Positions 9,088 to 48,222 of a stretch of DNA of 63,930 bases are shown here, piece by piece; positions within the stretch are counted from its first letter, which is position 1; the number at the start of each line of letters is the position of its first letter. The DNA lies in IMG/VR virus record IMGVR_UViG_3300037714_000576, positions 1 to 63,930 of that record, one strand, 5' to 3'. Both the position numbers and the translations under genes were made by a program. The notes under the pieces were generated by a model that was not told where the DNA came from, searched no databases, and saw only the letters and a list, made by a program, of their open reading frames with translations. This stretch comes from a virus (Duplodnaviria; Caudoviricetes).

Positions 9088-9104
9088 AAGGTTGAGAGTA
9101 GCGA

Positions 9105-22559: not shown

Positions 22560-22571
22560 TTGGGCTATGTC

Positions 22572-26896: not shown

Positions 26897-27097
26897 ATGA
26901 AAAACAACGCAGGATTCTACGTGGGGAGTGCAGTGCTGATTGGCGTTGCCGGATTCATCGCACATCGACTCGGCTATTCGAGCGGCTACACCGATGCGAG
27001 CAATCAATACAAAGAGCTCGAACGGCTTGCACAGAACACTGTGCAGACACCCGGCGCGACGGTGGCGGGCATGCGTGGTTTCTGGGGACGGTACTGA
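26897..27097 (+). CDS. Small TM protein
   Basis: AGGAG SD, TM helix, C-terminal MRGFWG. Confidence 0.7.
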   Translation: MKNNAGFYVGSAVLIGVAGFIAHRLGYSSGYTDASNQYKELERLAQNTVQTPGATVAGMRGFWGRY

Positions 27098-27195
27098 GAG
27101 CTGCGTGATACGCTTGATCTTGTAGTGCCCCAAGGAGGGGCCGCTGTCCGCCGCGAGTTGCGCGTGTGGACCATACCCGAAATCGGAGGATCGTC

Positions 27196-27342
27196 ATGGC
27201 TGCACGTCGTTGTCGCGGGGCAAAGGGTCGTTTCAAGAAGTGCGGGAGTGGTGGAGGCGGGACCCGCCGCAAGCGCGGGAAGAGCAAAGGCCGGTGCCTG
27301 CGCTACTCCAAGGGCAAGCGTCGCTGCCTGAAGCGCGGCTGA
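27196..27342 (+). CDS. 48-aa Arg/Lys/Cys-rich basic protein (not in ORF track)
   Basis: GGAGGA SD; MAARRCRGAKGRFKKCGSGGGGTRRKRGKSKGRCLRYSKGKRRCLKRG. Confidence 0.75.
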   Translation: MAARRCRGAKGRFKKCGSGGGGTRRKRGKSKGRCLRYSKGKRRCLKRG

Positions 27343-27381
27343 TCGCACTCGGAACGGTCGGACGAGGCGAAAGGAGCAGCC

Positions 27382-27717
27382 ATGGCGAGGAGACGTAAGC
27401 GCCGCACGAGCGGCACTGCAGGTACGGCCGGGCTCGGGATGATCCGAGTTCGGGGGACCCTTTGCCGGAGCCGGCGGGGCAAGTTCACCAAGTGCCGCAA
27501 GCCGGTGAAGCGCGGCCGCGGGAGCGGCTTCGGCAAGCGGCACGCGGACATTGCCGGTCGAAAGACGGCCGGACGCTGTCTGAAGTGGGGCTCGGGCAAG
27601 ACGAAGCGCGGGTTTCGCAGGTGCGCTAAGCGCGCTCCGTTGCGCGCGTCGGGTGCGGGCAAGGGCCGCTGTCAGAAGTGGTCCCGCGGGCGCACGCGCT
27701 GCATGAAGCGCGCGTAG
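27382..27717 (+). CDS. Protamine-like basic protein (putative DNA-condensing core protein)
   Basis: AAGGAG SD; very R/K-rich, repeated GRC..W..G...RC.KR. Confidence 0.8.
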   Translation: MARRRKRRTSGTAGTAGLGMIRVRGTLCRSRRGKFTKCRKPVKRGRGSGFGKRHADIAGRKTAGRCLKWGSGKTKRGFRRCAKRAPLRASGAGKGRCQKWSRGRTRCMKRA

Positions 27718-27914
27718 GGCGTCGTAGACAACGGTGGACGAAGGCGGATCAGAAAACTGATTCGCCTTTTGTAATTCGTCGCGTATTTCATGGGCGGCTG
27801 AACTCGTGAAGAAACACGGCGGCGAGTGCGGCGACGATCAGATACACAATTCCGAACCACCAACCGAGACTGAGGTACGCGGCAACGAAACAGCAGTAGA
27901 TGACGAGGGCTACC

Positions 27915-28340
27915 TTACGCATGTTCCACGCCCTCTGAAATGGGAACAACAAGGATGCTGTCACGTGCTTCGTTCGGATCGAAATTCTGCAGGACGAACG
28001 CTTCTGCCTCAAAATAGGATTCGAACGTCTTGGCACCTGCAAGCTCCTGCAGCCAATTTGCAGACTCGTTGTAGTAGAAGTACGTGCCGTTGACCCAAGC
28101 TTGCAACACGTAGGGCGCCTGTTTCACGTTTTCTTCCATATCACGAAGTATGAAGGTAGAGATCTCCCGAAAGATGTCTGCTTGCGCGCGGGCTAGAAGT
28201 CGAGGTTGTCCGCGGGAAGCCTCCAACATCAGGTCTGCCCGCGTCAGCTCAACTAGCCGCTTTGGTTCGTGGCCCAGGGGGTCGAGCTGGCGAAGGCGCC
28301 GCCTGCAGTAGCGCAAGAGCACGCCGGTTCGGAGGGTCAT
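27915..28340 (-). CDS. Hypothetical protein
   Basis: Part of minus-strand operon with ATGA overlaps. Confidence 0.6.
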   Translation of the reverse strand: MTLRTGVLLRYCRRRLRQLDPLGHEPKRLVELTRADLMLEASRGQPRLLARAQADIFREISTFILRDMEENVKQAPYVLQAWVNGTYFYYNESANWLQELAGAKTFESYFEAEAFVLQNFDPNEARDSILVVPISEGVEHA

Positions 28341-28765
28341 TCCTCGGGCTCCGGGGGCTCGGATGGCGCAGCCTCCCCGAACGTCGGCACCGGCGGGGGC
28401 GCAGGCAATTTGCCCTCAAAAGGCGGTGCAAGACGAGGTCGGATCGTGCTCGGAGGGCCGACCTGTTCGAGCTCGGCCGTGGGCGCAACCGCACGCCGTC
28501 GAAGGATCCCTTCGAGCACATCGAAACAGACGTTGAACGCGTGGGTTCCTACGCTCGAGCCGCGCGCGTCGCGGAGGCCACGCATGGAGATGTCGATCGA
28601 TCGGTACTCCACATGTAGTCCACTTGGACCACTCCACAGTGCACCGAGGGAGATCGCAGAGGCATCGTGGTACGGGGAAGTCACTGCGCGCAGGTCCACG
28701 TCAAAGACCTCTGCCGCAAGCTTCTGGAGCTCTTCGAACGTGATACGCGTAGTCGGCGGCGGCAT
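28337..28765 (-). CDS. Hypothetical protein
   Basis: Operon packing, Pro-rich tail. Confidence 0.6.
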   Translation of the reverse strand: MPPPTTRITFEELQKLAAEVFDVDLRAVTSPYHDASAISLGALWSGPSGLHVEYRSIDISMRGLRDARGSSVGTHAFNVCFDVLEGILRRRAVAPTAELEQVGPPSTIRPRLAPPFEGKLPAPPPVPTFGEAAPSEPPEPEE

Positions 28766-28769
28766 GCGT

Positions 28770-29099
28770 TCATCGTACCACCCCGGAGCTAGGCTCCATG
28801 AAGGGTCTGTAGACGCGTGTCGGACCGTCTTCTGGCTGAATTACCAAGATCACACGTTCGGGGCTTTCCCAGGCGTAGTGACACAACACGTATTTTGCGA
28901 AGTCGAATTCGGGAAGGTAGTTAATGCCCGCACCGAGCGTGAGGCATTGTGGATGTTTGTTGCCGCCATAGTGCTCTGCCAACTCCCGAAAGTCGCAATC
29001 GCAATGATGCTTCTTGAGCGACTCGTTTAGATGTAAAAGTACTTTGTCTTCATCTTCGGACAAGGAACAAATAAACGTCACACCTGATACCATGCTCAT
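28770..29099 (-). CDS. Conserved phage hypothetical protein
   Basis: GGNKHPQ...GINYL...W..PE.V.L pattern. Confidence 0.6.
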   Translation of the reverse strand: MSMVSGVTFICSLSEDEDKVLLHLNESLKKHHCDCDFRELAEHYGGNKHPQCLTLGAGINYLPEFDFAKYVLCHYAWESPERVILVIQPEDGPTRVYRPFMEPSSGVVR

Positions 29100-29335
29100 C
29101 GCGGCATGGTCCGGATAAAGCCAAAGCGTTCGAGGACTGCAATCAATCCTTCGCTGTGATCGTTGCATAAGACTGATCTGCGCGGATACGTGTGTTCAAC
29201 TCCTGGTACATGCACCGTCCAACACTGAAAGGGTGCGTCACTGTTGAAGCCGTCTCCGCTGCGAATGGTGCACATCTTCGTGCAACCTTCATGGTCGCAT
29301 CTATACGTAGAAACGCAGTCACGATCTATGCCCAT
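29096..29335 (-). CDS. Small Cys/His protein
   Basis: CDHEGC...LCNDH; overlap coupling. Confidence 0.5.
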   Translation of the reverse strand: MGIDRDCVSTYRCDHEGCTKMCTIRSGDGFNSDAPFQCWTVHVPGVEHTYPRRSVLCNDHSEGLIAVLERFGFIRTMPR

Positions 29336-29642
29336 GATTATCCCTTTCGTACTGTGCGGCGTTCAATGTTGTCATCAAGCGTGCGCGGATGATATGGCGC
29401 TGCTCGAGGATAGCATCATTCACTTCAAACTGTGGAACGTCCAAAGCGATGGCCAAACGTGCAACAACCGCCGTAAGTGTCGGCATGTGCATTGTTTCGT
29501 CTATTCGGTCAAACAACAGTTTCAGGATGTCGTTCGTTACAGACTGTGTTTGAGCACAGAGTGGATCTTTGCAGTCGCACTGCGGCATATGTACTGACTC
29601 TGAAGTGACGGTTCCATCGGGTCGAAAAAACGGAGTGGTCAT
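29319..29642 (-). CDS. Hypothetical protein
   Basis: Overlap coupling. Confidence 0.55.
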   Translation of the reverse strand: MTTPFFRPDGTVTSESVHMPQCDCKDPLCAQTQSVTNDILKLLFDRIDETMHMPTLTAVVARLAIALDVPQFEVNDAILEQRHIIRARLMTTLNAAQYERDNHGHRS

Positions 29643-29962
29643 GATGTGGCCTTTCTGGCTTCGAGCTGATCAGCGACTGCGAACTCACGTGCGACAAACG
29701 TGTCGCGGTCCCATGTGGAATCACGTTTCACATGCACCGCAGCGATTGCAAGCGCTTGAGCCCGCCACCAGGCTGCCCACGTCTCGTCAATGGAATCTCC
29801 GCGGAGTTCAACTGTTCGATAGACCTCGCGCTGGAGCATGGACGGGACCATGCGCCAACACGTCTTGCACATCAGCCACCGAGGCGGACAGGGAATTTTG
29901 CAGCCGATCGCATGGCAATGATGAACTACCGTAGATGACATTTCAGCCCTCGATTCAAACAT
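29639..29962 (-). CDS. Zn-binding phage protein
   Basis: HCHAIGC....PP..LMC..CW..VP. Confidence 0.6.
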   Translation of the reverse strand: MFESRAEMSSTVVHHCHAIGCKIPCPPRWLMCKTCWRMVPSMLQREVYRTVELRGDSIDETWAAWWRAQALAIAAVHVKRDSTWDRDTFVAREFAVADQLEARKATS

Positions 29963-30266
29963 TGCCGTGGTCTGTTAACGCGAATGCTACGGTTTCCAAC
30001 GCGCGGTTGAGGTCTTCGACAAAGGTGCTGGCAAAAGCTACTGCCAAACTGCGGAGGTCGGGCAGGCTTGGATCACCTTCAATTTCTTTCTCCGCGATTG
30101 TATTACCATCGGCATCAACAATCTGTACCGCAGCTGAATAAGAATTACCTTCTTCGAAGGACATGGCGCATACGCCTTGCAATTGGTACGGCCCGAATGG
30201 AATCCAAGTTGAGGAACCATCGGCATGATCGCGCCAAACCGGCTGCTTTGTTGTCGTCATAGTCAT
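29955..30266 (-). CDS. Hypothetical protein
   Basis: GGAG SD, first gene of leftward operon. Confidence 0.6.
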   Translation of the reverse strand: MTMTTTKQPVWRDHADGSSTWIPFGPYQLQGVCAMSFEEGNSYSAAVQIVDADGNTIAEKEIEGDPSLPDLRSLAVAFASTFVEDLNRALETVAFALTDHGNV

Positions 30267-30296
30267 TCGCTCCGTACTTCGGGTATCCTTGAAGGC

Positions 30297-30662
30297 ATGC
30301 CGTCACTCGTCCTGCGGGGGGACCCGCCCAGCACCTACTGCGCCCTGGCGTTCATCGAAGGGCAACCCCGGGCCGGCTGGCGGTTCCTCGGAGCCACGGC
30401 GGTCCGATCCTTGTTCATCTTGCCGGGGCTTGCCTTTGCGGGTGCGCGCGGGTGGGGGTTGGTCAAGGGTTCGTTGTTCGCGTCGATGTCGATCAGCACC
30501 GTGCTGCTCCTTTACTACGGCTACCAGCGGGCAAAGTCCTTGGAGACGGGCAAACCCCCACCGTGGGACAACGGTTGGGGGATTGAATCGTTGACTGCGC
30601 AAACGCAGGGTGCGCAGACATCAACTGCCGGTTTCCGTGGGCTTCGCGGACTCGCCCGGTAG
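30297..30662 (+). CDS. Membrane protein with C-terminal GFRGLRGL
   Basis: Two TM segments. Confidence 0.65.
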   Translation: MPSLVLRGDPPSTYCALAFIEGQPRAGWRFLGATAVRSLFILPGLAFAGARGWGLVKGSLFASMSISTVLLLYYGYQRAKSLETGKPPPWDNGWGIESLTAQTQGAQTSTAGFRGLRGLAR

Positions 30663-30920
30663 TGCTTCGCGCTGCTGCTGTTCGTACAGTTCTTCCGCCG
30701 CTTCAAGCTGTTCGCCGAACTGCTCGCCCAAGCGTTTGAATGCGACAGCAGAATTTTTGCCGAACGCGGTGGCGTACAGGTGCTGTGCGACAGACTCTGC
30801 CTTCCACCCGATTGGGGTGATCAACGCGACATACCCGCCATGCTGACGCCTGATCTCAACTTCAAATCGTAGCGTGCCCTGGCCAGCGCCAATCAAAGGT
30901 ACGGGTGTCCAGTCTTTCAT
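30621..30920 (-). CDS. Hypothetical protein
   Basis: ATGA overlap with 30917..31147. Confidence 0.55.
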   Translation of the reverse strand: MKDWTPVPLIGAGQGTLRFEVEIRRQHGGYVALITPIGWKAESVAQHLYATAFGKNSAVAFKRLGEQFGEQLEAAEELYEQQQREALPGESAKPTETGS

Positions 30921-31147
30921 CCGCTGACCGCCTTTCGTACGATGCGCGCATCGTTCGCTAAATCGGTGTCGAGCTGATCTGCCATGTCGCGAAGGATCGT
31001 CGACAGTACGGTGGCAATCGCTGGAATCGTCGGGTTGGATCGAACTGAGTATCCGGATCCGTACTTCCCCCGAAACACGATTACGACTGCGCCGGCAGCG
31101 TCCGTTTCTTCGCGGACGTATTCACACAGCTCATCGTATGGAGCCAT
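30917..31147 (-). CDS. Small protein, paralog of 33811..34104
   Basis: YD..C.YVRE.T.A.G.V.IV..G..G.G.S shared. Confidence 0.7.
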   Translation of the reverse strand: MAPYDELCEYVREETDAAGAVVIVFRGKYGSGYSVRSNPTIPAIATVLSTILRDMADQLDTDLANDARIVRKAVSG

Positions 31148-32573: not shown

Positions 32574-32834
32574 ATGAACGAACCAAGCAAGTCGAAACGC
32601 ATAGCGATTGCGGCTGAGTGTATGACCGCATTGACACCCATTCTCGCGAAGTACGCTGGTATGGAAGTTGTCGTGTCTTTCAGCCTGCCACGTGAGAGCG
32701 CACCAAACACGTTCGCGACCTGCGTTGCGTCAAATATCACGGACCACGAGTATGCGATCGAGCTGCTCAACAACAGCGCACGGGAAATCAAGGAACAGCT
32801 CGTTGTGCGACACGGTGTAGGCCATGACTGCTGA
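32574..32834 (+). CDS. Hypothetical protein
   Basis: Operon packing. Confidence 0.5.
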   Translation: MNEPSKSKRIAIAAECMTALTPILAKYAGMEVVVSFSLPRESAPNTFATCVASNITDHEYAIELLNNSAREIKEQLVVRHGVGHDC

Positions 32835-33273
32835 TACCGAGCGAGATCGAATTGTGAGGCACCTCGGGTGGTTGGCTACGCAAGCAAAGTCACGCGAAGT
32901 GCAAGTCGCGCTTTCGTACGCGATGGCAACGGTGATCCGTGGTGACGCCAGCCTGAAGCAGACGCAGTCGCAACCGGAGCTTCCAAGGGATCTCTTTCAT
33001 CCCACGACGACGGCTGCACTAATAGAACGTGAGCACCGTGCACTGATCTGGAACATCGCCGCCCGAGCTGTCGGTCTCGGGATCTTCAAGATCACAATGC
33101 ACGGTGTGGCGTTGGTCATGATCACTCACCGGCATTGTCCGCTGCGGCTTGCTGATTTGCTTGCGGCAGAAGACCATGACTTTGTGCACGATATTGTGGG
33201 CATCGCGAAGCACATTGATTGGGACACCGGCAAGTTGGGTGGTGCCTTCCTTCCACGCTTTCGGAGTGTGTAA
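32824..33273 (+). CDS. Conserved phage protein (DUF6874-like C terminus)
   Basis: CPLRL..LL.A.D.DF.HDI.GI..H.D..TGKL...FLPRF. Confidence 0.7.
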   Translation: MTADTERDRIVRHLGWLATQAKSREVQVALSYAMATVIRGDASLKQTQSQPELPRDLFHPTTTAALIEREHRALIWNIAARAVGLGIFKITMHGVALVMITHRHCPLRLADLLAAEDHDFVHDIVGIAKHIDWDTGKLGGAFLPRFRSV

Positions 33274-34854: not shown

Positions 34855-35229
34855 ATGACAACCAAGGCACAGTTACTGAGCGTTCTGGCCAATACCGAAC
34901 GGCAGCTTGCAGCGAGTGAACGCAGTTACATCGCGGCGTTCGAATGGTTTTGCGCCGAAACGCGCGGCGAAATGCCGCTATGCATCGACGTAGCTGGCGA
35001 CAGTGGAATTCGTGTCCTTGTGCACGGGCTGACACGCGCGTGCGGCGGGGTCGCTGTCGTGAGCCTTCCGGCCGAGAGTTTCCGGGACATGCCGGAGCAT
35101 CTCGACGACCTTCTGCCACGATGGTTTGCTGACAATGATGCCAACATCCGGCACGCCGCGCGTAGCATCGAATCGGCGCGCACGGCAGCTACCGCCTACC
35201 AGCAAACTGCACACCTGAACGATTTTTGA
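34855..35229 (+). CDS. Hypothetical protein, first gene of cassette-like array
   Basis: Stop abuts first repeat element. Confidence 0.7.
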   Translation: MTTKAQLLSVLANTERQLAASERSYIAAFEWFCAETRGEMPLCIDVAGDSGIRVLVHGLTRACGGVAVVSLPAESFRDMPEHLDDLLPRWFADNDANIRHAARSIESARTAATAYQQTAHLNDF

Positions 35230-35282
35230 AGCGCTGGCACGCACACTGCCGGCGCTTTAGGCGTTTAAGGAGAGAATCGAAC

Positions 35283-35480
35283 ATGGCAAGCAATCGCAAA
35301 ATGACTTGGCACGTGGTTACCAGTCAGGGCCGCATCGTACTCGGTGTGTACGGTGAGGCCCTGCTTTCGCACGCACAGCGGCAAGCGGCCGAGGTCGAGC
35401 GCTCCACGGGCCTGCCTGCGTTCGTCGAACAGGTGCGCGCAACGTGGGCGCGCCGGCCCTTCGTGGGAGCGTGCATCTAA
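35283..35480 (+). CDS. Hypothetical protein (array)
   Basis: ATG follows repeat SD. Confidence 0.7.
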   Translation: MASNRKMTWHVVTSQGRIVLGVYGEALLSHAQRQAAEVERSTGLPAFVEQVRATWARRPFVGACI

Positions 35481-35800
35481 ATGAAGCGTCGCAACTCACA
35501 CTTGACCGAGTGGCGTTCACTGAGATCAACGATGACGTGCGCTTCAAGACGTTGACTGACTTGCGTCTCAGTGCGCCCGAGCGCGCACGCACGGCTGGTG
35601 ACTCCAATAAGGCCTACGACTTGATCGCGAAAAGCGCGATTTCGTTCGCCGCGGACGAAGATAATGCGATCTACAGGTTCGCATTTTGCGACAGTGACCA
35701 CGGTGAGGCCATTATCAGCCGCAAGTTGGGTGTTCCGGAGTGGTGATCAAGCGTTGGGTTCGACTCCCAGCGCTATACGCGTTTAAAGGGGAACGAGGAA

Positions 35801-36313
35801 ATGAACATTGACGACACGATCGCGATCGCACAACGCGTGCTCGATCATCTGCGCACAGGCTCGATCGCCGACGCGCAGTCGACCACAGAAATCCTTGCGG
35901 CTGAAATCGCAAATCTGATCGTTGCCGCCAATGTAGGCGAAACCGTCGCAACGCGAATTGCACGGATGCAGCTTACAGATATTAAAGAGACTCGACTGGA
36001 GACACTCACAATCGCCCATCCATTAGTGGACGATGCCACGTTTGCGCAGATCTCCAATGCCCTACGTGTGAGCCGCAAGGCCACGGTGATCCTACCCGCA
36101 CACCGGTACGAGAATCTCTCGCGCGGCAAGGGATGGGCCCGCAAAGGTAAGGGTACGTCGGCTGAATGGGGCGAACGCGTAGACGGCGGCTATCGCGTCG
36201 GGCCCGGTCGCTGGACTGTGGGCGCCAGTGATGGCTTTCACCGCAAGGACGAGGATGTGTGGAACGTCGAACACATCAAGATGGGCGATATGACCTGGAC
36301 AATCGCAAACTAA
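35801..36313 (+). CDS. Hypothetical protein (array)
   Basis: Bounded by repeats on both sides. Confidence 0.8.
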   Translation: MNIDDTIAIAQRVLDHLRTGSIADAQSTTEILAAEIANLIVAANVGETVATRIARMQLTDIKETRLETLTIAHPLVDDATFAQISNALRVSRKATVILPAHRYENLSRGKGWARKGKGTSAEWGERVDGGYRVGPGRWTVGASDGFHRKDEDVWNVEHIKMGDMTWTIAN

Positions 36314-36361
36314 GCGCCACGCCTCACACCGTGGCGCCAAACGCGTTTAAGGAGACCTCAC

Positions 36362-36559
36362 ATGGACCCAAATGCATGTCTCGAACGCTGGCGCCGCGCA
36401 CTGGCCGGCAAGAATCGCAGTGAAGCACGTGCGGCACGTATGGATCTGGTCGGTTGGCTTCGAAGCGGGGGTTTTTGGCCAAAAAACATCACAACCGCGG
36501 AGCTGGCAATCTTCAAGCGCTACCACGGCCTTGTGCCATCTGCTGCCGCAAACACGTAG
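36362..36559 (+). CDS. Small phage protein (MDPNACL...W...GGF.P)
   Basis: Bounded by repeats. Confidence 0.8.
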   Translation: MDPNACLERWRRALAGKNRSEARAARMDLVGWLRSGGFWPKNITTAELAIFKRYHGLVPSAAANT

Positions 36560-36618
36560 TTCCAAGCGTCGAGTTCAACTCTCGACGCCAAACGCATTTA
36601 AAGGGGTAGTCCAAAACC

Positions 36619-36918
36619 ATGACCGTGAATCCATTTCAGTCCGCGGTAGACAATAACATCAACTTCGAACACATGCGCGCGCTCGCACTGATCGTCCGCT
36701 GCGCACACACCGAAAGCGACGTGTTCACGGGTTGCCGCGTGTATCGTGCTCTCAGCGACTACACAGAACCAAGCATCAACGGCTATCTGGAGGGTTGCCA
36801 CTTCGAAGCGTGGGTAGACGATGGCATGATTCCGTATCTCGACGCGCTGCAAGGCAAGGCGGACGAATTCCTCACGAGCCACGTCGAGACGCAGCATCAC
36901 ACGCAGATCGATCGCTAG
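36619..36918 (+). CDS. Acidic hypothetical protein (array)
   Basis: Bounded by repeats. Confidence 0.75.
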   Translation: MTVNPFQSAVDNNINFEHMRALALIVRCAHTESDVFTGCRVYRALSDYTEPSINGYLEGCHFEAWVDDGMIPYLDALQGKADEFLTSHVETQHHTQIDR

Positions 36919-36974
36919 TTCCAGGCGTCGGGTTTGACTCCCGGCGCTGTAGGCATTTAAAAGGGGTGAACACA

Positions 36975-37952
36975 ATGGACATTCACGCTCGGCTCAAAAG
37001 CTTGCGTCAATCGCGAGAAATTCTAGGAATACGTACCAAGTTTCGTCGTTGGCTGCGGAGCGAAGCCGGGCTCACACGTATGCGCGAATGTGTCGAGCGG
37101 AGCGAACCACGCAGCACCCCGGACTTTCGTGGTCCGGGATTTCACTGGATCGATGGCAAGATGTATCAGGACCCGTGGACGCCGAATTGGCGCCCGGGAC
37201 TGGAATTCAACACCGGCTCTGGCCGTGCTGCGGAATGGTGTCATGTCGCCTACGAGCAATACGCACTGATTTGCCGTCTACTCCACCAGCACATGGGGTG
37301 GAGTGGCGATAAGGTGCGACTTGCGGGCAGGTCACTCACCCAAGCGGTAAACGGGGGCGGCCACACGTGGCAGCCACCAGAACCGTTCGTGCCCGTTACC
37401 GAGCTTGTGCGCGTTGCGGCACTGCCTCCCGCGTACCCTGGAAAATGGGAATACTGGAGCACAATCGAGGCGAATTCCAACCCCGCGCGAACATGCGATC
37501 CACAGACACTGCACAAGCTCGCGCAATGGCGTCTCTGGATTGCTCGTGTAGTTGCGCCTGCGTGGGGCGAGTTTATTCTCGCGCACTATCGTGCACGGCT
37601 GGCGAACGATCCTACGTACCGTACCCCCTCGATGATCGTAGGGGAGATCCGCCGTTTGCGTGGTGCAAAGGTCACAGACTTTCGCGGTTGTTCCGGCTGT
37701 CAGTACCTCGCGCGCATCGCGTTTTTGTCGACTGAAGAGCAGGATCAGCTGCTCGCACGCGCCGCGGAACCTACGCCCGTTACGCTGGCGAATGGGCTGC
37801 AGGGGATTTGCGTGCCGTTCGGCCTTTCGGCTCCGGCGGAATACGATCGTTGTCTGATTCTCGGTTTGAGCCACGAAATTCGCGTTCGCAGTGCGGATTA
37901 CGCTGCGCTCACCCCAGAACAGCTTACTGCGGTTATTCGCGTGGGTGTGTGA
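36975..37952 (+). CDS. Hypothetical protein (array)
   Basis: ATG after repeat SD; 325 aa. Confidence 0.75.
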   Translation: MDIHARLKSLRQSREILGIRTKFRRWLRSEAGLTRMRECVERSEPRSTPDFRGPGFHWIDGKMYQDPWTPNWRPGLEFNTGSGRAAEWCHVAYEQYALICRLLHQHMGWSGDKVRLAGRSLTQAVNGGGHTWQPPEPFVPVTELVRVAALPPAYPGKWEYWSTIEANSNPARTCDPQTLHKLAQWRLWIARVVAPAWGEFILAHYRARLANDPTYRTPSMIVGEIRRLRGAKVTDFRGCSGCQYLARIAFLSTEEQDQLLARAAEPTPVTLANGLQGICVPFGLSAPAEYDRCLILGLSHEIRVRSADYAALTPEQLTAVIRVGV

Positions 37953-38141
37953 TGACAGATCCGCACGAGATGGTGATGATCGACGGGCGCATCCGGGCTG
38001 TGTACACAGCCCGGACTGGACATCGGTACTACCTCGTAGACGGCGTACGTCGCTACTTGTGTGCGTAGGAGGGATGGCCGGTGAAATAGGCGCTGAGTTA
38101 GATTCTCAGCGCCAAAGGCGTTTAAGGAGCGCAAATTTCAT

Positions 38142-38441
38142 ATGCACGAAGTCGTAACCATCAACCGAGATGGCACAAACATCCGAGTATGGCTCACAGC
38201 GCCAGACTATGGCACCGCCAATCGATTTGCGATCGAACACGCGGCATTCGAACCGGGACAGATCACATACGTCCGCAATATCGAGACACCCAACACGTGT
38301 CAGGTCGCCTATGTGAGCCTTTCAGAGCTTTGCTATGGCAAGTTGTCCATGGTTGACTTCAGTTGCAACGTTCCGGTCGGGGAATTGCCTGAATTTGCCG
38401 CGAAAACAGTCGCTTGGTTCCGTGAGCACTGGAAATTGTGA
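38142..38441 (+). CDS. Hypothetical protein (array)
   Basis: ATG after repeat. Confidence 0.7.
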   Translation: MHEVVTINRDGTNIRVWLTAPDYGTANRFAIEHAAFEPGQITYVRNIETPNTCQVAYVSLSELCYGKLSMVDFSCNVPVGELPEFAAKTVAWFREHWKL

Positions 38442-38519
38442 TGCGACGATCGGGCCAAGAGCCTCGCACCTCGCGCGGAGCACACTCCGCGCCATAGGCG
38501 TTTAAAGGGGTGAGAAATC

Positions 38520-38813
38520 ATGGTGACGTACTACCAGATCGTGCAGGCCTACCGCGGCGTCGTGACGGCTGCTCGCAGACTCGACTATGCAAAGCGCTTT
38601 TCGAGCGCGCAAATACCCAACTTCAAACCGGACACGATACTGCTCGAAGGTACGCACGCGCCGATCGAAATTGGAGAGGCCCTGAAAGTGCTCCATGTCT
38701 CGCAATCGAGCTGCCGCCCGATAACGATACAAACGCACGGCTTCCGACCCATGTGCGCAACGTCAAGTTGGAGCGTACTCGCTAAGCGTCGAGTTAGACT
38801 CTCGACGCTTTAG
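38520..38813 (+). CDS. Hypothetical protein (array), possibly frameshifted
   Basis: ATG after repeat; reads into the next repeat hairpin. Confidence 0.55.
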   Translation: MVTYYQIVQAYRGVVTAARRLDYAKRFSSAQIPNFKPDTILLEGTHAPIEIGEALKVLHVSQSSCRPITIQTHGFRPMCATSSWSVLAKRRVRLSTL

Positions 38814-38835
38814 GCGTTTAAAGGGGTAGTGAAGT

Positions 38836-39192
38836 ATGGACGTCAACATCATGATTCGTGCGCTCAACAGGCTCACAGAACCGCATTTCACCAACGGGGG
38901 GCATCACATATGCACCGGTGATGCGTCGCTGGACGGTGCGATACTTGCTGGATGGTACGCAGCGAACGCGCTGGACAGTCAGCGCGAAACGGTCAAGCGC
39001 GTGTGTGATCTGTTGCGCGCAACGCAGGAGCTCAACAAAGTACAGCACGGTGTGATCCTGTCGGGTGAGCACCTGCGGATCACTGCGGCTGATTTGTGCG
39101 ATATCCTGAACGCGATTGCGTACGCCACCAGTCTGGTGTGCGACGAAATTCGCACCTTGGAGCTACTCAAGCTCAAGAAGCCGCGATCATGA
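38836..39192 (+). CDS. Hypothetical protein (array)
   Basis: ATG after repeat. Confidence 0.7.
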   Translation: MDVNIMIRALNRLTEPHFTNGGHHICTGDASLDGAILAGWYAANALDSQRETVKRVCDLLRATQELNKVQHGVILSGEHLRITAADLCDILNAIAYATSLVCDEIRTLELLKLKKPRS

Positions 39193-39370
39193 TCGTCGGG
39201 CTGCCAACATGCGCGCTTCTGCACCTACTACTACAAGAGATCTGGCGTGTCTTGTGCCGAGCGCTTTTGCGCCTGGTGATCAAACACGTTCCTGGTGGTT
39301 GGGTCGTCGCATTCACCTAAAGCGTCGGGTTTGACTCCCGACGCTTTAGGCGTTTAAGGAGCAAGAAGAA

Positions 39371-39919
39371 ATGAACGGTGACCACGAAATTTGGTGTGGG
39401 AATACGCTAGTGGAGACACTCCACTGGACGGGCCCGGTGTATGTTTTTCCAGAGGCACCCCCAGAAAGCGTATTACTTCAGAGGCGCGCCTTTCGCGATC
39501 AAGCGATCAAGCGTGCGTTCGAGCTCCGCGGCCTTGCGTACACACGCATGAATCCAAACTGGAAAGAGATCGCACATCTCGAATTCGACTGCAAAGAAGT
39601 CAACGAAACACAAGTTGCTGCCACAACCCCGATTGGGACCTTTCTGATCGCAGCGCGGCGCGTGAAAGCTGGAGAGCAAGCTACAGCGGTAGTAGTCGGC
39701 TCAAACCTTATCGGATACGGTGAGACGGCACGGGAAGATCAAATCAGTCTGCCTACGCGCCTTGTAGGGCGGCTGTTACCGCCGGAGCGGTCCGAGTGGC
39801 GCGAGTTGTGGCTGTTTCAGCCCACTTGCTTCGGGTACGCAGACGGTACAGTAAGTTCGTACCTCGGCAGCTATCCGCGCCGGATCACATGGGTACAAGA
39901 GCCGCATTGGCCGAAATAG
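39371..39919 (+). CDS. Hypothetical protein (array)
   Basis: ATG after repeat. Confidence 0.7.
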   Translation: MNGDHEIWCGNTLVETLHWTGPVYVFPEAPPESVLLQRRAFRDQAIKRAFELRGLAYTRMNPNWKEIAHLEFDCKEVNETQVAATTPIGTFLIAARRVKAGEQATAVVVGSNLIGYGETAREDQISLPTRLVGRLLPPERSEWRELWLFQPTCFGYADGTVSSYLGSYPRRITWVQEPHWPK

Positions 39920-39947
39920 GCGTCGAGGCACCGGGAGAAATACTGAC

Positions 39948-40127
39948 ATGGCACAAAAGAAAACTCGCAAGCTCAGACCCGTCGAGCCTGAACACTTCGT
40001 TGTACAGTTCAGTCTAGTTAGTGTGCGCGGACAATACTTCTACGCGCGCTTCAAAACGCGTCGTGCGGCTCTCCGGTTTGTCGATTTCGACGATCACGAT
40101 GTGATTGAAACCGCGTGCATCCTGTAA
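39948..40127 (+). CDS. 59-aa protein (not in ORF track)
   Basis: GGAG SD; MAQKKTRKLRPVEPEHF...; stop abuts repeat. Confidence 0.6.
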   Translation: MAQKKTRKLRPVEPEHFVVQFSLVSVRGQYFYARFKTRRAALRFVDFDDHDVIETACIL

Positions 40128-40173
40128 GCCCTGGGTTGGACTCCCGGGGCATTCGGCCGTTAAAGGGGTTTAA

Positions 40174-40839
40174 ATGCTCACTAAGGAACGCGCGCACAAA
40201 GCGTGGGAAGCACGCGGCGCAGAACAGACGGTGGAACACACGCTCACAAAAGACGAGTGCGCGTACGTCAAACTGATCTGGGATCACATGCCCGGCAATT
40301 CGACGTGGATGGACGCATTTTTCTTGATCATGAATGCGAAACGCGAAGGTCCACCAGAATTTCAGCCGCTCGACTTCGTGATCGTGAAAAACACGCACGG
40401 ATACGAAGCCTATCGTGGGCGCCGTGGCATGATTCGGAGCTATGTGCCATTCGGTAAGCTGTATGTGTATCTGCGGCCTGCGGGCCAAACATACGGCGCT
40501 GATGTTGCTCTTTGCATTATCGACGAATCGGACTTAGCCAGAGACACGCCGAGTCACCAAGACGTTGTGTGTCTGACAGGTGCGACACGCGAAAACGGCT
40601 GCTGGGGGACATCAGACGAAATCAAGCCTGGTGACATTGCGGACGAATCCTTGTATTGGGAGTGGTTAGAGGCTGTGCCTCCAGCCACACACAAACTAGA
40701 TTTGATGCAAATGGGTGAACCAATGGACCACAACGGTTTGGGCGACAAGCCACGGTTTCTCACAATGCAAAAACACGGCGAACAGTGGATCTATACTGGT
40801 ATTCGTGTTCGCGGTGAGCGCGTCCAGATCAAACAGTGA
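40174..40839 (+). CDS. Hypothetical protein (array)
   Basis: ATG after repeat; C-terminal VPP...MQMGEP.DH motif. Confidence 0.7.
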   Translation: MLTKERAHKAWEARGAEQTVEHTLTKDECAYVKLIWDHMPGNSTWMDAFFLIMNAKREGPPEFQPLDFVIVKNTHGYEAYRGRRGMIRSYVPFGKLYVYLRPAGQTYGADVALCIIDESDLARDTPSHQDVVCLTGATRENGCWGTSDEIKPGDIADESLYWEWLEAVPPATHKLDLMQMGEPMDHNGLGDKPRFLTMQKHGEQWIYTGIRVRGERVQIKQ

Positions 40840-40948
40840 AAGTCGACGAAAGCCGCTCGGGTAGATTTGTAGATCTGTATGTAGATCTATAAAGATGCCT
40901 CATGGGGCCTTTGTCTCCCATTACAAAGGAAAAGAAGGGTAAGGAAGT

Positions 40949-42127
40949 ATGGCACTGAAAGCACAAGTCAAAGTTAGCGCCGTCGATCGGCCGAAAACGC
41001 TTACGCGCGCCTCGCAACAGTGGCGCGAACGCCCGGCAGACGAGTGCTTCGAAACACTGGACGCGTTGCTCGCCGCCACGCGCGGTCATCACCAGCGCGC
41101 CGTGCAGGTCAAAAAGCCGTTCCACGAAATCCGCGTCACGCATGGCACGAACGATGAAATCTACCTTGTGGGACAGGGCGGCAAGATGATCCGCCCGAAC
41201 CACTGGGCCTTCGGCCAGCTGTGCCAGCGCGTAGGTGCGCCGGCCAGCTACCTTCGCGAGCTCCCGGCACACCTGGCTGTGGAGAACCTTCGGCATGGTC
41301 TGGAGGCCGCCACCGACGAGGAAGCCGCCGTTCTGCTGGTTGAGAAGCCCGAGCAAAGTGGCGATATCGCCACGCTGCGCGCCATGACGAGCGACAAATA
41401 CACGCGCGTGTGGAATGACGAAGTCGCAGAAGCACTCGTCGCTTTGCGCGAGCGCGCGCCGTCGTGGCAGTTCCCGGAGCCTTTCCGCACTGTGGGCGGC
41501 ACGAAAGCCAATGCGTGGGGTAAGGCCGACGGCAAGCAGATCCCGATCGCGTTCGCGTCGGATCACGACATGTTCGTATTCCTGTGCGACTACGAACACG
41601 GGATCGACGTCGGGGGAAGCGTGCTTGCGCGCGGGTTTTTCGTCGAAAACAGCGAAGTTGGGGATGCGTCCTTCAAGGTGACCATGTTCCTGTTCGATTT
41701 CGTTTGCTCGAACATCCTGGTGTGGGGTGCGCGCAACGTGGCGGAGATCAAGTTTAAGCATGTTGGTGCGGTTCGCGATCGTGTGCTCGCGCGTGATTCG
41801 AAGGTGCTCAAGGCGATCAATGACTATTCCAATCTGCGCGCCAGTGAGCAGACAAGCCAAATCCTGAACGCCCAGAACGTTCTGATCGGCAAGGATGATG
41901 CTGAGGTTTTGTCAACACTGTTCGGGCGCAAGTCCTTGCAGCTCGCCAAAGGCGACATCCAAGCCGCGCAGCTCGTCGCGAACACGACGCCCCGCTACGG
42001 CAACCCACGCTCGGTCTGGGCAATCGTCAACGGTCTGACTGAAGTCTCTCAGCGCACGACCTACACAGACCAACGTATCAAGTTGGATCGCGCCGCGGGT
42101 TCGTTGCTCGAAACCTTCGCATTCTGA
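40949..42127 (+). CDS. DUF932-family protein
   Basis: HWAFGQL..VGAPASYL, LRA.TS..Y.R, ASDHDMFVFL, NSEVG, VCSN. Confidence 0.85.
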   Translation: MALKAQVKVSAVDRPKTLTRASQQWRERPADECFETLDALLAATRGHHQRAVQVKKPFHEIRVTHGTNDEIYLVGQGGKMIRPNHWAFGQLCQRVGAPASYLRELPAHLAVENLRHGLEAATDEEAAVLLVEKPEQSGDIATLRAMTSDKYTRVWNDEVAEALVALRERAPSWQFPEPFRTVGGTKANAWGKADGKQIPIAFASDHDMFVFLCDYEHGIDVGGSVLARGFFVENSEVGDASFKVTMFLFDFVCSNILVWGARNVAEIKFKHVGAVRDRVLARDSKVLKAINDYSNLRASEQTSQILNAQNVLIGKDDAEVLSTLFGRKSLQLAKGDIQAAQLVANTTPRYGNPRSVWAIVNGLTEVSQRTTYTDQRIKLDRAAGSLLETFAF

Positions 42128-42202
42128 TTCGAGCCGCAGATCTACAAACCAAGCCTTACGGCTCACACCGGGGGGCTTTGGGCGTTTAAGGGGTAGTACC
42201 AA

Positions 42203-42472
42203 ATGGCATCAAACCGTCTCACGTCGGATCTGCCGCCTCCACCAGAGCAGATCGATCCTAACGACAGAATTTCACCAGAGCTCCGCAAATGGCTCAATAC
42301 CGGCTGGCGCGCGCAATGTAGTGGTTGCGGACTGCGTTGGAGCAGTCACCAGCGACCCGGGGACACAAGGTGTCCCGACTGCAACGACTTGCCTTCACTA
42401 CCGTCGAGCCTGGCAGCGATCCAATCGATGCCGGGCCCTGCGGACAGCATATTTCGACCTATGAAAAGGTGA
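42203..42472 (+). CDS. Small zinc-finger protein
   Basis: CSGC...CPDC; ATG after repeat. Confidence 0.65.
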   Translation: MASNRLTSDLPPPPEQIDPNDRISPELRKWLNTGWRAQCSGCGLRWSSHQRPGDTRCPDCNDLPSLPSSLAAIQSMPGPADSIFRPMKR

Positions 42473-42571
42473 TCACGCAAATTCGTAATCGCGTCACTTG
42501 CTTTTGGCTAGCCCAAAGCGCTACAACCACTTCTGGTCAGTCACCACACGCCAAAGCAGAAGGGCGGCCCC

Positions 42572-42850
42572 ATGTTGATCGGCAATAAGTCCAGGAATGT
42601 CCGTGTTTCGATTCAACATATGCATCCGGCGTTGTATGCCCAGCTTGAAGTTGGTGACGAGCTCGTAATCTATCGCAACGGCCCCTTGTTGTCCGTAGCT
42701 GATGCAGACGTCGCACTTGATCACGTCTTGTACGATCTCCATACACGGCAACTGGATTGCGAAGAAATCGATGACGGCCCGACACGGCTCGTCTGGGCGA
42801 TCGTGCGAGCTCGCGATCGAGCTCGCGATCTGGCAAGCGCCGCCGAATAG
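42572..42850 (+). CDS. Hypothetical protein
   Basis: Plausible ORF followed by hairpin 42855-42890. Confidence 0.55.
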   Translation: MLIGNKSRNVRVSIQHMHPALYAQLEVGDELVIYRNGPLLSVADADVALDHVLYDLHTRQLDCEEIDDGPTRLVWAIVRARDRARDLASAAE

Positions 42851-42985
42851 GTTAGGCGCTCGGACCCCAACCCCTTTACCCCCGAGCGCCGAAACACGGC
42901 GACGGCGAGCTGCGATCACACCCCGATCGAAAACTTGCCGCGCGCCGTGTCCTTGCACGAGAGGTGCAAGCTGAGGAAGGCGACA

Positions 42986-43297
42986 ATGGACATTCAGCAA
43001 ATAAACGCCCATCGCGTGAGGTCGTTTCATGTGTTCATCGAAACGACACACACGGACCACAGCAAGGTGCAAATTGCCATCGATAGGCCGGGAACAGGGG
43101 GCTTGACGTTCTTCGAGCTCCCAGAGCCATTCGGGTGCGTATTGTCGCTGATTCTGCTGGGCTGTGCGCGGTTACAGGAGCGGATTCAACACGTACCTGA
43201 AGCGTTGCGCTCGCACCTGTCGCACGAAGCGGCGCAACAAATGCTGATTGACGAGAGTTTTGCTAACATTCCAGAACAAACACGAGAAATGCACTAA
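42986..43297 (+). CDS. Hypothetical protein
   Basis: SD-like GGAAGG. Confidence 0.55.
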   Translation: MDIQQINAHRVRSFHVFIETTHTDHSKVQIAIDRPGTGGLTFFELPEPFGCVLSLILLGCARLQERIQHVPEALRSHLSHEAAQQMLIDESFANIPEQTREMH

Positions 43298-44984: not shown

Positions 44985-45347
44985 GTGAGATCGATGCGTA
45001 ACGGTGACGAAATTTTGACAGCGCGCTTCGAGTTCAAATGCACGCCAAAGGAACGCGAGCAGATCCAGGTCACAGCGTATCAACGCAAGCAGACTGCAAG
45101 TGTCTTCCTACGCGAAGTCGCACGCGCAGCTATTTTGAATGAGGAAATCAGGCCCGTCGCGGCGACTTCTCTGAGCGATACAGAAGTTTGGCAAAGCGTG
45201 TTCGTGGCCTCGCTGCAGGGCAGTGCAGTCATGGCCGACAAGACCCACGCCATTGAATCAAGTCGCTCTATCATTGCAAATGCTGAGTCGATCGCTGATG
45301 CCGCCATTCTCGCGCGACGTCGGCGTGTTCTTGAATCAGCTGACTGA
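44985..45347 (+). CDS. RHH-like protein
   Basis: RFEFKCT..E...I...A.....SVFLRE. Confidence 0.55.
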   Translation: MRSMRNGDEILTARFEFKCTPKEREQIQVTAYQRKQTASVFLREVARAAILNEEIRPVAATSLSDTEVWQSVFVASLQGSAVMADKTHAIESSRSIIANAESIADAAILARRRRVLESAD

Positions 45348-46117: not shown

Positions 46118-46411
46118 GTGCGAACATACAAAGCCAAACTGATGCCGGTCGACGGCGAAATTGTAGACCTGGACCTACCGCCAGACATCGGCAAGGTTCT
46201 CGCTCTGCTCGGAGATGCTGAACTGTTTCAGACCGTCCGCACCCGTGAGGGAATGATGCTCGTGGACGACAACGGGCTACGAAAGGGGCTGCCGCAGAAT
46301 CCGCGCGCGTCGGACCTGTACGCGGGCGGGTATATCGCTGGGCCGGCGGTGCTGTTCACACAGGCTGAGTGGGACGTGTACGACGCGGCCTTTTCGGAGC
46401 CGGGGCTGTGA
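46118..46411 (+). CDS. DUF3846-like protein
   Basis: MLVDDNG..KGLP.N..AS.LY...IAG.AV. Confidence 0.7.
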   Translation: MRTYKAKLMPVDGEIVDLDLPPDIGKVLALLGDAELFQTVRTREGMMLVDDNGLRKGLPQNPRASDLYAGGYIAGPAVLFTQAEWDVYDAAFSEPGL

Positions 46412-47394: not shown

Positions 47395-48222
47395 ATGCAA
47401 TTCGATGAATGGCTACGAAAGAACAACTACCAGGCGAGCACAGCCAAGCAGACACTGTCCGATCTACGACGTGTTGGCAATGCGAATGCCATGGCCGACC
47501 CCGGCGTCATCAATGCCCTGCGTCGTTACATCGCGTACGCGGTCCAATACGACGTCCGCGACGAATACACGGAAGCTGCTGCACAACATGGGATTGGTGG
47601 CGTCAAGCGCCTCCCGCACGTCAAAGACACAACGCGGAAACTCGACGCTGTCAGTTTCGAGGATGACGACTGGAGCGAGCTCGTGGAGGCGGTCAAAGGC
47701 GCCTCCAAACCGACCGATCAAGTACTGTGGGCGATGGTCACGACGGGGCTCCGCGTCGGGGATACACTCCGCGTCGAACGCGGGGCGCTCGCGGGGATCC
47801 TTGAGTCCTCGAACCCCATCATTCACATGGAAGTGAAGGGCGGCATATACCGGCCCGTGCCGATTGGCGTGCGCGAACCGTGGGAGGCGCTCGCACGCGG
47901 GGTGCTGGCGGGCAAAGCTGCGAATGTAGCCCAGTACGTCTGCGCAGGGTCTGTGGGGCCCGATGTGCGTGGCAGCTGCGCCTATCACCGCGTGAACAGG
48001 CGGTTGAAGACACTGCAACGCCAGCTCGGACTGTCCGGTCGAGCCAACACGCACCGAATTCGCCGCACGATCGCGGTCCATACCCTGGAAGAAACTGACA
48101 ACATCGTGGCAACGCAGCAGATGATGGGGCACAGAACGATGCAATCGACGTTGAAATACGTTGACGAGCGAAATCATCGGGGTACAGCCCGGTTGCAGCG
48201 CAAGCTCGCAGGCCTGGAATGA
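47395..48222 (+). CDS. Second tyrosine recombinase (XerC/D-like, no arm-binding domain)
   Basis: TGLRVGD, KGG, HRIRRT, MGH...STLKY. Confidence 0.9.
   Translation: MQFDEWLRKNNYQASTAKQTLSDLRRVGNANAMADPGVINALRRYIAYAVQYDVRDEYTEAAAQHGIGGVKRLPHVKDTTRKLDAVSFEDDDWSELVEAVKGASKPTDQVLWAMVTTGLRVGDTLRVERGALAGILESSNPIIHMEVKGGIYRPVPIGVREPWEALARGVLAGKAANVAQYVCAGSVGPDVRGSCAYHRVNRRLKTLQRQLGLSGRANTHRIRRTIAVHTLEETDNIVATQQMMGHRTMQSTLKYVDERNHRGTARLQRKLAGLE

Follow-up and report, generated by a model that had tools for sequence, protein, structure and literature searches.

Repeated modules in front of phage accessory genes, among them PeSL and SAS/ESAS, have been described for 15 years, and to our knowledge their mechanism outside T4 is unknown. 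Here we describe a module of this general kind in a 63,930-base virus sequence, the complete IMG/VR record IMGVR_UViG_3300037714_000576, which is classed as a provirus, estimated to be 74% complete and referred to below as the window. Eleven copies of an element, each consisting of a GC-rich hairpin, a spacer of five nucleotides (nt), a conserved eight-letter word (the core, GCRTTTAA), a ribosome-binding site and an ATG, stand in an array of small genes, and a second set of copies is present in G001, a viral contig of 70,383 bases estimated to be 53% complete. An earlier reading of the window from its letters alone (the original prediction) had pointed to the elements and had offered two models, integron-like recombination sites or RNA elements that punctuate a polycistron. 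The comparisons reported below tentatively favour the second.

The closest described systems share part of this design. In the sections of Arbiol et al. (2010; PMC2839356) that describe them, the PeSL cassettes of phages RB49 and phi1 are, like the present elements, short repeated modules of a variable phage region that reach from the previous stop codon to the next ribosome site and start codon; they likewise contain a stem-loop with G-T pairs, stand mostly before ORFans and lie where relatives differ in gene content. According to the same sections, the PeSL is built round a consensus sigma-70 promoter and its stem-loop varies in position (PMC2839356). In contrast, the elements described here are without a promoter consensus, their hairpin stands in fixed register to the eight-letter word, their stems covary, and the arrays that contain them resemble single operons. 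Of the defining features of a PeSL, the combination of stem-loop, ribosome site and ORFan start in a variable region is present in the elements, and a sigma-70 promoter within the module is absent in the window and in G001.

The SAS/ESAS repeats of cluster K mycobacteriophages offer a second likeness. In the portions of Pope et al. (2011; PMC3203893) that deal with the repeats, an asymmetric word that includes or touches the ribosome site occurs in 11-19 copies of one orientation, only in the non-structural half of the genome, with a strong preference for ATG and often with an inverted repeat just upstream, features that the window elements show as well. These portions place SAS 3-7 base pairs (bp) from the start codon and favour a DNA-binding protein, as the departures from the ESAS repeat do not support RNA pairing (PMC3203893). 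The elements differ in that their stems covary, with compensation at all eight pairs, and in that the G001 word lies 10-58 nt from the start, so that it is not a start signal as such; in the window, where the start is an ATG in all 11 cases, the distance is 10-17 nt. Because the PeSL promoter is absent and the ESAS repeats do not compensate, the element family appears to belong to neither group and to be a variant of that general kind.

Structure of the elements in the window

The elements lie in a gene array that forms two runs, one at 34855-40839 and the other made up of a DUF932 gene and 42203-42472:

34855-42472, + strand: array of 17 co-directional open reading frames (ORFs) of 38-392 amino acids (aa), nearly all without any family
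40949-42127, + strand: DUF932 gene (DUF932/phrog_1362 match)

The original prediction had placed 11 elements here, each combining a hairpin, a core and a Shine-Dalgarno (SD) sequence. All of them are found by R1, a covariance model built from these 11 copies, with scores of 42.3-64.6 bits (E-value <= 7.3e-10) within the 63,930-base window; the next-best window match (18.7 bits) corresponds to an element read on its reverse strand. All 11 are on the + strand, at 35228-42195, and none occurs elsewhere in the window:

35228-35274, + strand: element E1; CACAC-type loop, TTTAG, GCGTTTAA, GGAG; ATG at 35283; the upstream TGA abuts the stem; 46.6 bits
35748-35792, + strand: element E2; loop TTCGACT, GCGTTTAA, AGGGG; ATG at 35801; 60.7 bits
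36311-36355, + strand: element E3; CACAC-type loop, GCGTTTAA, GGAG; ATG at 36362; 46.4 bits
36563-36607, + strand: element E4; loop TTCAACT, GCATTTAA, AGGGG; ATG at 36619; 56.9 bits
36922-36966, + strand: element E5; loop TTTGACT, GCATTTAA, AAGGGG; ATG at 36975; 55.8 bits
38087-38131, + strand: element E6; loop TTAGATT, GCGTTTAA, GGAG; ATG at 38142; 52.7 bits
38467-38511, + strand: element E7; 8-bp stem, CACA tetraloop, GCGTTTAA, AGGGG; ATG at 38520; 42.3 bits
38783-38827, + strand: element E8; loop TTAGACT, GCGTTTAA, AGGGG; ATG at 38836; 64.6 bits
39319-39363, + strand: element E9; loop TTTGACT, GCGTTTAA, GGAG; ATG at 39371; 60.2 bits
40125-40169, + strand: element E10; loop TTGGACT, GCCGTTAA, AGGGG; ATG at 40174; 52.6 bits
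42150-42195, + strand: element E11, after the DUF932 gene; CACAC-type loop, GCGTTTAA, GGGG; ATG at 42203; 45 bits

The order of parts (stem, loop, 3' arm, 5 nt, core, GGAG or (A)GGGG, ATG) is kept in strict register. The stem is GC-rich, 8-14 bp long and usually opens with GCG/CGC pairs; it is contiguous and free of bulges in 10 of the 11 copies, and the hairpins span 20-35 nt. The stem of E9 can be extended to 14 bp, with the upstream TAA inside its lower part, and E11 has a weaker hairpin with one A/G mismatch and two T.G pairs. Eight elements have the core GCGTTTAA, two have GCATTTAA and one has GCCGTTAA, the three variant copies being one-letter changes or shifts of GCGTTTAA. That word occurs eight times in the window, always on the + strand and always inside an element, against 1.68 occurrences expected, and none of 100 shuffled sequences reached eight. 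The two loop classes of the original prediction are also borne out, with seven copies of the form TTNRAYT and four of the CACA type.

The position of the elements relative to genes is nearly as regular. It had been proposed that they usually begin at or just after the previous stop codon, which holds for 7 of the 11 (0-9 nt from stop to hairpin); in three others the gap is 14-26 nt, and in the remaining case the upstream ORF (38520-38813) runs through the hairpin. This ORF spans the whole hairpin of E8; its TAG stop falls within the 5-nt spacer, 2 nt short of the core, where a terminating ribosome would sit at the ribosome site of the next gene. Neither run has an element before its first gene or after its last, and overlapping, coupled genes have none between them. 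In folds of the segments from -70 to +35 round the starts, the mean unpaired probability at the ribosome site was 0.40-0.76; there was no consistent masking or exposure of the site, and control by masking was set aside.

The genes behind the elements had been described as unrelated, and the 17 array proteins do prove mutually unrelated, with a best cross-match at an E-value of 0.004. The ORFs led by an element encode 65-325 aa; their proteins have no match in Pfam, and their sole match in PHROGs is a weak one to an HNH endonuclease (E-value 2.6e-05) for the 65-aa product of 36362-36559.

Two decayed copies were also recognised:

35484-35504, + strand: decayed copy of which the 5' arm and a CTCACAC loop alone are left
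39917-39947, + strand: decayed copy, read by eye; 5' arm GCGTCGAG followed directly by a GGGAG ribosome site and the ATG at 39948

The second has lost its loop, 3' arm and core and is not found by R1. At the first, a contig from another study (the X2 run) carries about 37 extra letters at 35504, with joints 35504>38489 and 38523>35505; judging from the joint table, these letters resemble the 3' arm, core, SD and ATG of E7.

Covariation of the stems

The stems had been predicted to differ in sequence and yet to stay paired. Among the 11 window copies, 90.9% of the alignment cells were paired, compared with 78.9% in shuffled alignments, and six of eight pairs showed double changes; none of 500 shuffles equalled this. 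When copies from four sources were combined, 95.5% of the cells paired across 26 copies versus 66.4% in shuffles, in an alignment fitted to the model, which favours pairing, and with one extra row, an antisense match, included in the count. All eight pairs then showed double changes, the covariation score was 0.692 versus 0.186 (0 of 500 shuffles), and slid controls paired in 24-52% of cells. Both the base of the stem and the closing pair are conserved (GC in 22, CG in 24 and GC in 20 of the 26 copies), and the middle of the stem varies.

The imperfect pairs point to a strand, as the original prediction had noted. In the 26 copies there are 10 T.G cells and no A.C or C.A cells, so that every wobble suits the sense strand. 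Additionally, the sense strand is the more stable in 19 of 29 hairpins, the less stable in nine and equal in one, and the reverse complements of the five window elements with T.G pairs fold worse. Since all wobbles suit the sense strand, which also folds better in most hairpins, the fold is selected in mRNA or in the top DNA strand.

Related arrays in other contigs

Four patterns were used to look for further copies: a loose 20-letter pattern, a strict pattern of the T-loop class, a CACAC-class pattern and a 17-letter linear pattern. The strict T-loop-class pattern had no match in viral, genome or metagenome contigs, and the loose pattern gave at least 118 single matches, apparently by chance. 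The CACAC-class pattern led to G001. The 17-letter pattern found G001 again together with seven contigs, each of which has one weak R1 match (11.3-21.9 bits); these were rejected as relatives, the single matches being taken as chance.

G001 carries 17 R1 matches on a single strand within 13.4 kilobases (kb), 16 of them with a G[CT][GA]TTTAA core. The proteins that it has in common with the window are a polymerase (24% identity), a helicase (26%) and a collagen-like fibre segment only; no small protein is common to the two at an E-value of 0.05 or below. The hairpin, five letters (mostly TTTAG) and GCRTTTAA(A) nonetheless hold register in G001. A logo of 28 copies shows a conserved block from -8 to about +9 round GCRTTTAA, in which TTTAA is present in all 28 and the third core letter is always a purine. 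In G001 the TTTAG often pairs with an upstream CTAAA, giving stems of up to 14-15 pairs, as is also seen in E9. In 6 of 16 G001 copies the ribosome site directly adjoins the core, and elsewhere a CA-rich leader separates the two, which accounts for the wider range of distances from core to start noted above. Because the ribosome site separates from the core in this way, the core is neither an extended Shine-Dalgarno sequence nor a start-associated word, and the tight fusion of core and ribosome site in the window is a local compaction. The claim that an SD belongs to the element thus stands for all 11 window copies and not for the family. The T-loop-like loop is similarly local: it occurs in 7 of the 11 window copies and in none of 18 copies from G001 and two metagenome contigs (L129 and L131), where the loops are of the ACAC, ACATC or CACAC kind.

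In G001, about 900 nt of non-coding DNA precede the array, no element stands before the first gene, and the array closes with a canonical terminator, six T behind a 10-bp GC stem. Together with the element-free ends of the window runs and the absence of elements between coupled genes, this makes the elements internal marks of an operon. The non-coding region upstream of the G001 array (L155 17330-18300, minus strand; G001 about 52330-53300) is rich in repeats and in CA/TG and contains several palindromes; it is presumably an operon control region or an origin. Elsewhere in G001, at 27022-30945 (L157 7022-10945), an ORF of 1307 aa contains an intein with a LAGLIDADG endonuclease domain (Pfam E-values 5e-15 and 1.2e-14).

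Searches for related loci with the window polymerase found no relative among viral contigs, and those with the DUF932 protein found none among genome contigs. The DUF932 search yielded one relative among viral contigs (L127, 39% identity), which is without an element, and four short metagenome contigs of 54-67% protein identity, two of which carry the element (L129 and L131, with DUF932 genes 59-67% identical to that of the window). In L131 the element stands directly after the DUF932 gene, as E11 does, with the same loop and core and with a stem that is different but fully compensated. The window and L131 have different genes after DUF932, with an intervening element that aligns, and the genes next to the L129 and L131 elements have no counterpart in the window. 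Among + strand ORFs of at least 40 aa in L127-L131, the only window matches are the DUF932 genes and one partial match to 40525-40830.

Two further metagenome contigs of this set carry repeated leaders of other kinds. L128, whose DUF932 is 54% identical, has four near-identical two-hairpin leaders of about 100 nt (75-153, 434-513, 865-943 and 1271-1349); these include the TGA of the previous gene, one stands before the DUF932 gene itself, and one keeps a core-like word after the first hairpin. This leader resembles an elaborated form of the module that has spread recently. L130 has another leader in three copies (842-960, 1356-1410 and 2060-2165), a hairpin with a fixed ribosome-site word that ends in ATG.

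The relatives compared for breakpoints are these four short contigs and near-identical strains, and the strains keep the gene order. The array stretch is present in three sequencing runs, and in contigs of two other studies the gene order is identical across E4, E5, E7, E8 and E10. The 37-nt indel described above and an internal deletion both end inside elements. Between relatives, however, the genes beside a conserved element differ, and the elements thus appear to mark sites where genes turn over, much like the PeSL cassettes of T4-like phages.

Promoter, terminator and tRNA comparisons

As had been suggested for the elements, Rfam was consulted: no family matched at gathering scores in the whole window or at an E-value of 10 or below in 35100-42400. 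A literature search for the nine-letter word returned primer lists only. A scan of 19 kb for sigma-70 promoters gave five sites versus 6.9 expected, none of them at the 11 elements. Promoters of the sigma-54, sigma-28, ECF and T4-late types, compared by eye with consensus sequences, were rejected, as key positions misfit or the transcription start would come to lie past the ribosome site. The U-tract test asked for at least five T within 8 nt downstream of the stem, and all 11 elements fall short of it. No G001 copy was called a promoter or a terminator on its own strand; G001 does have canonical terminators, among them the one that closes its array.

The seven T-loop-class copies recall another group of signals, the t-elements and tRNA punctuation of organelle transcripts, for which the relevant parts of PMC1920247 describe tRNA-like stem-loops between genes as possible processing signals. 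The likeness is that seven window loops fit the T-loop TTNRA with a G-C closing pair. Where a tRNA would offer an acceptor and a T stem, these copies have 8-10 pairs, and no CCA follows. ARAGORN and the Rfam tRNA model find a single tRNA, the tRNA-Gln at 9105-9175, and match none of the elements. A tRNA-like minihelix has a coaxial stem of about 12 bp and a 3' CCA. The idea of tRNA-minihelix mimicry therefore fares poorly, with no such loop among the 18 copies outside the window, and the likeness to tRNA is best regarded as confined to seven copies of a single lineage.

Six of the seven TTNRAYT loops, taken with the first stem letter, contain GANTC (GACTC or GATTC). GANTC is the site of CcrM-type adenine methylases, and the window has a DNA methyltransferase gene at 22560-23426 (phrog_56, E-value 1.4e-80). 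The GANTC in the loops may be a coincidence or a layer at the DNA level.

Proposed function and alternative explanations

The reading that we favour, with somewhat less than even confidence, is that the element acts in cis within a long polycistronic transcript of accessory genes, as a signal for the processing and stability of that mRNA. The functional unit would be the hairpin, with its freely covarying stem, and a single-stranded GCRUUUAA(A) 5 nt after the stem, with the ribosome-binding site excluded. The GC-rich hairpin would shield the 3' end of the upstream cistron, and an endoribonuclease, either a host nuclease of the RNase E kind or a dedicated one, would cut at the AU-rich word, the sole such stretch in a context of 55-58% G+C. 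Each cassette would then be carried on a separate mRNA segment of independent stability, its ribosome site clear of upstream sequence. The same module on every cassette would also provide short homologies for gene exchange between relatives; such exchange is probably real, because turnover is seen beside conserved elements, and would be a consequence and not the selected function. Action in RNA rather than in single-stranded DNA, the cutting and the identity of the cutter are what we infer from these comparisons.

Several observations argue for a processing and stability signal. The covariation is of the RNA type, the wobbles suit the sense strand, the elements are internal to operons, and they have no promoter or terminator consensus. 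Furthermore, hairpin and core keep their register in G001 and the ribosome site does not, and the same core occurs in phages with nearly no common proteins as well as beside DUF932 genes of 59-67% identity. R-U-U-U-A fits the preference of RNase E, which favours a purine at the second letter before the cut and a U at the second letter after it. In the original prediction an RNA element that punctuates a polycistron had been one of the two models; this much agrees with the covariation, the strand bias, the position in the operon and the lack of a promoter or terminator, its tRNA part is weak, and cleavage is inferred only.

Known hairpins with related roles help to define the proposal. The early RNase III sites of T7-like phages are hairpins at the junctions of a polycistron, which is cut there into gene-sized mRNAs with protective ends; the sites are about two helical turns long and have an internal loop. 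The elements are likewise conserved junction hairpins of a polycistron, and processing is the function proposed here. They are unlike the T7 sites in having stems of 8-15 pairs and a conserved single-stranded word, which suggests an enzyme different from that of the T7 case. The REP/BIME sequences of enterobacterial operons are GC-rich hairpins that protect upstream mRNA from 3' exonucleases; they are chromosomal sequences of the host, have their own transposase, and occur in either orientation and often in pairs. The elements resemble them as repeated GC-rich hairpins between genes of one operon and differ in being phage-borne, strictly co-oriented with the genes and equipped with an extra conserved word.

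A number of points weigh against a processing and stability signal. RNase E-type enzymes need just a degenerate AU-rich site, and a general nuclease would not explain eight fixed letters across distant phages, which point to a sequence-specific partner of the word; no such partner was found, the window and G001 having no small protein in common at the threshold given above. The gene at 39948-40127 keeps its ribosome site and start despite having lost hairpin and core, so the module is dispensable for the gene behind it. All three runs that carry the array stretch are DNA metagenomes. Among the structural data, some of the copies behind the 10:0 wobble count may have a common descent, the 26-copy alignment had been fitted to the model, and all ten wobble pairs carry their T in the 5' arm, which an RNA reading does not predict. 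In a more specific version of the proposal, a sequence-specific endoribonuclease of host or phage reads hairpin and GCRUUUAA and cuts each junction in a clade of uncultured phages; the fixed letters argue for a specific reader of this sort, and we regard it as a possibility on the unlikely side.

The fixed letters could also be the target of a dedicated RNA-binding regulator of phage or host, for which the hairpin is the handle and GCRUUUAA the specific part, and which controls elongation, anti-termination or translation across the array. In nut sites and rRNA leaders a hairpin of free sequence stands next to a conserved linear box, and the word may have its U-run-plus-AA in common with the rRNA-leader boxA. 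The elements match this boxB-boxA layout, with a fixed word 5 nt from a free-sequence hairpin whose base and closing pair are conserved and whose middle varies, and the word is conserved beyond the needs of a general nuclease. A regulator of this sort is nevertheless doubtful: no candidate protein was found, the array and neighbouring proteins include no RNA-binding family, and the window and G001 have no small protein in common at the threshold given above; one or two nut sites serve an operon, compared with 11-17 copies here; with 20-58 nt between them and the ribosome site, many G001 copies are too distant to block it; and the loops fall into at least two unrelated classes. If the hairpins instead acted as leaky attenuators or insulators in the manner of PeSL stem-loops, the partial stops would produce a falling gradient of expression or a dependence on anti-termination. 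Their GC-rich hairpins do stand right behind genes, and TTT directly follows the stem in most G001 copies and in 4 of 11 window copies; moreover, in the sections of Arbiol et al. on expression, PeSL stem-loops without classic U-tracts lowered the expression of a reporter to a similar degree as a strong terminator (PMC2839356). Such attenuation seems improbable here. None of the 11 elements passes the simple U-tract test described above, six window copies have CAAAC, CAAAG, CATAG, TATAC, TGTAG or ATTCG after the stem, and the TTT, where present, often pairs with an upstream AAA as lower stem. The true end of the G001 array uses a canonical hairpin with six T, 11-17 serial partial stops would leave nearly no distal transcript, and the conserved GGCR within the supposed tail would be unexplained.

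The elements could, alternatively, act as internal promoters read by a not yet recognised RNA polymerase or sigma factor, in a moron-like arrangement in which about 17 letters from the stem end to TTTAA form the promoter, the hairpin terminates the previous unit and each cassette is a transcription unit by itself. The conserved block of about 17-20 nt has the size of a promoter for a single-subunit polymerase and stands upstream of every cassette, and its conservation would follow if distant phages had a polymerase or a host sigma factor in common. We consider this highly improbable, as no element has a sigma-70-like match, the first gene of each array is without an element, and neither record, at 74% and 53% completeness, has a match to Sigma70_r2 or to a T7-type polymerase (the latter in a search without a positive control), nor is any polymerase family found among the large ORFs scanned. 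In addition, the ribosome site abuts the core in the window, so a start site there would leave no leader; the GG after the core is kept in just 4 of 10 G001 copies where it is not the ribosome site; and a DNA promoter does not predict sense-strand wobbles. As a main role, recombination is likewise very improbable, whether the elements are taken as integron-like sites for a tyrosine recombinase or as short homologies for cassette swaps, as for PeSLs. Relatives that keep the element and carry unrelated neighbour genes (window and L131 after DUF932), the indel and deletion that end inside elements and a tyrosine recombinase at 47395-48222 speak for it. Sites of the attC type in integrons are well over 50 nt long, a length above about 55 nt being the criterion, with R''/L''...L'/R' boxes, a GTTRRRY core, extrahelical bases and a fold on the bottom strand. 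The arrays are alike in that unrelated, mostly promoterless small genes of one orientation are accompanied by imperfect palindromes in which structure is kept over sequence. The elements differ in the length of their hairpins (20-35 nt), in folding on the sense strand and in having no R/L boxes, no extrahelical bases and no IntI; none of the 11 cores fits GTTRRRY. The integron-integrase model TIGR02249 gives 19.7 bits for 47395-48222 and 22.4 bits for 9437-10645, against a cut-off of 265, and PF00589 (Phage_integrase) has no match in the 70 kb of G001 despite its 16-17 elements. The would-be crossover loops, moreover, differ between copies, and gene order is the same across five elements in the two other studies. 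With no IntI, no tyrosine recombinase in the 70 kb of G001 and a fold on the strand opposite to that of attC, the integron reading of the original prediction is not supported, and what survives of that model is gene turnover beside conserved elements. For the simpler version, selection for exchangeability could not hold the covarying stem and the eight letters constant in phages that have ceased to have genes in common.

Other features of the window

The window encodes a helicase, an exonuclease, a family-A DNA polymerase, a DNA methyltransferase and tail-fibre-like genes. An integrase gene (9437-10645) lies beside the tRNA-Gln gene (9105-9175), and a second, small tyrosine recombinase is encoded at 47395-48222. 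A megablast search with 35000-43000 for near relatives among cultured phages gave no match, as did a blastn search with one element, and all database matches of the window polymerase are below 27% identity; by these sequence comparisons the window phage appears to have no close cultured relative. Just upstream of the tRNA-Gln and integrase genes, 9059-9088 resembles the 3' end of another tRNA, with a T-arm-like hairpin, a 7-nt strand and ACCA in that order, and may be a remnant of an attachment-site duplication.

Within the array, faint structure rows in the Atlas (TM-scores of 0.27-0.33, below the bar) suggested a NusG-like protein for 40174-40839, which was rejected for lack of support in Pfam (E-value <= 5) and in PDB sequences. 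Atlas searches of 36975-37949 and 40174-40836 found no usable relatives. The products of the first and last genes led by an element (35283-35297 and 42203-42217) both start with MASNR, in which three of the five residues are encoded by different codons; the common start is probably due to chance.

Around the array, DUF6874 and DUF932 domains and weak NikA-like and DUF3846 matches were observed (32824-33273, 40949-42127, 44985-45347 and 46118-46411). Leading regions of conjugative elements often encode DUF932 and DUF3846, so the array region may be of an entry-phase, anti-defence type.

A second repeat, TGTAGATCT, is often present as an inverted pair. It has 23 matches at one mismatch or fewer, versus 6.3 expected (0 of 100 shuffles), and eight exact copies; its sites include 40868-40891, 42138-42146, 10641-10661, 3459-3470 and 53038-53049. 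One copy closely follows the DUF932 gene, two occupy the AT-rich gap ahead of it, and the end of the integrase gene has a pair. The repeat looks like an operator for a DNA-binding regulator, which would make the DUF932 gene a separate unit within the array.

Implications

The covariation would place this family at the RNA level, and G001 narrows the unit to a hairpin and eight letters. Its conservation across phages with almost no common genes implies a conserved partner that should be discoverable. If the element is a processing signal, it would explain how long strings of newly acquired genes can be evenly expressed, and would represent a compact natural insulator part. Were a sequence-specific endoribonuclease indeed to read it, each captured gene would be an autonomous, insulated expression unit, and the module would let cassettes move between phages that share no other genes. 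Such a system would be a natural counterpart of mitochondrial tRNA punctuation and of the engineered insulation of operons by Csy4-type cleavage.

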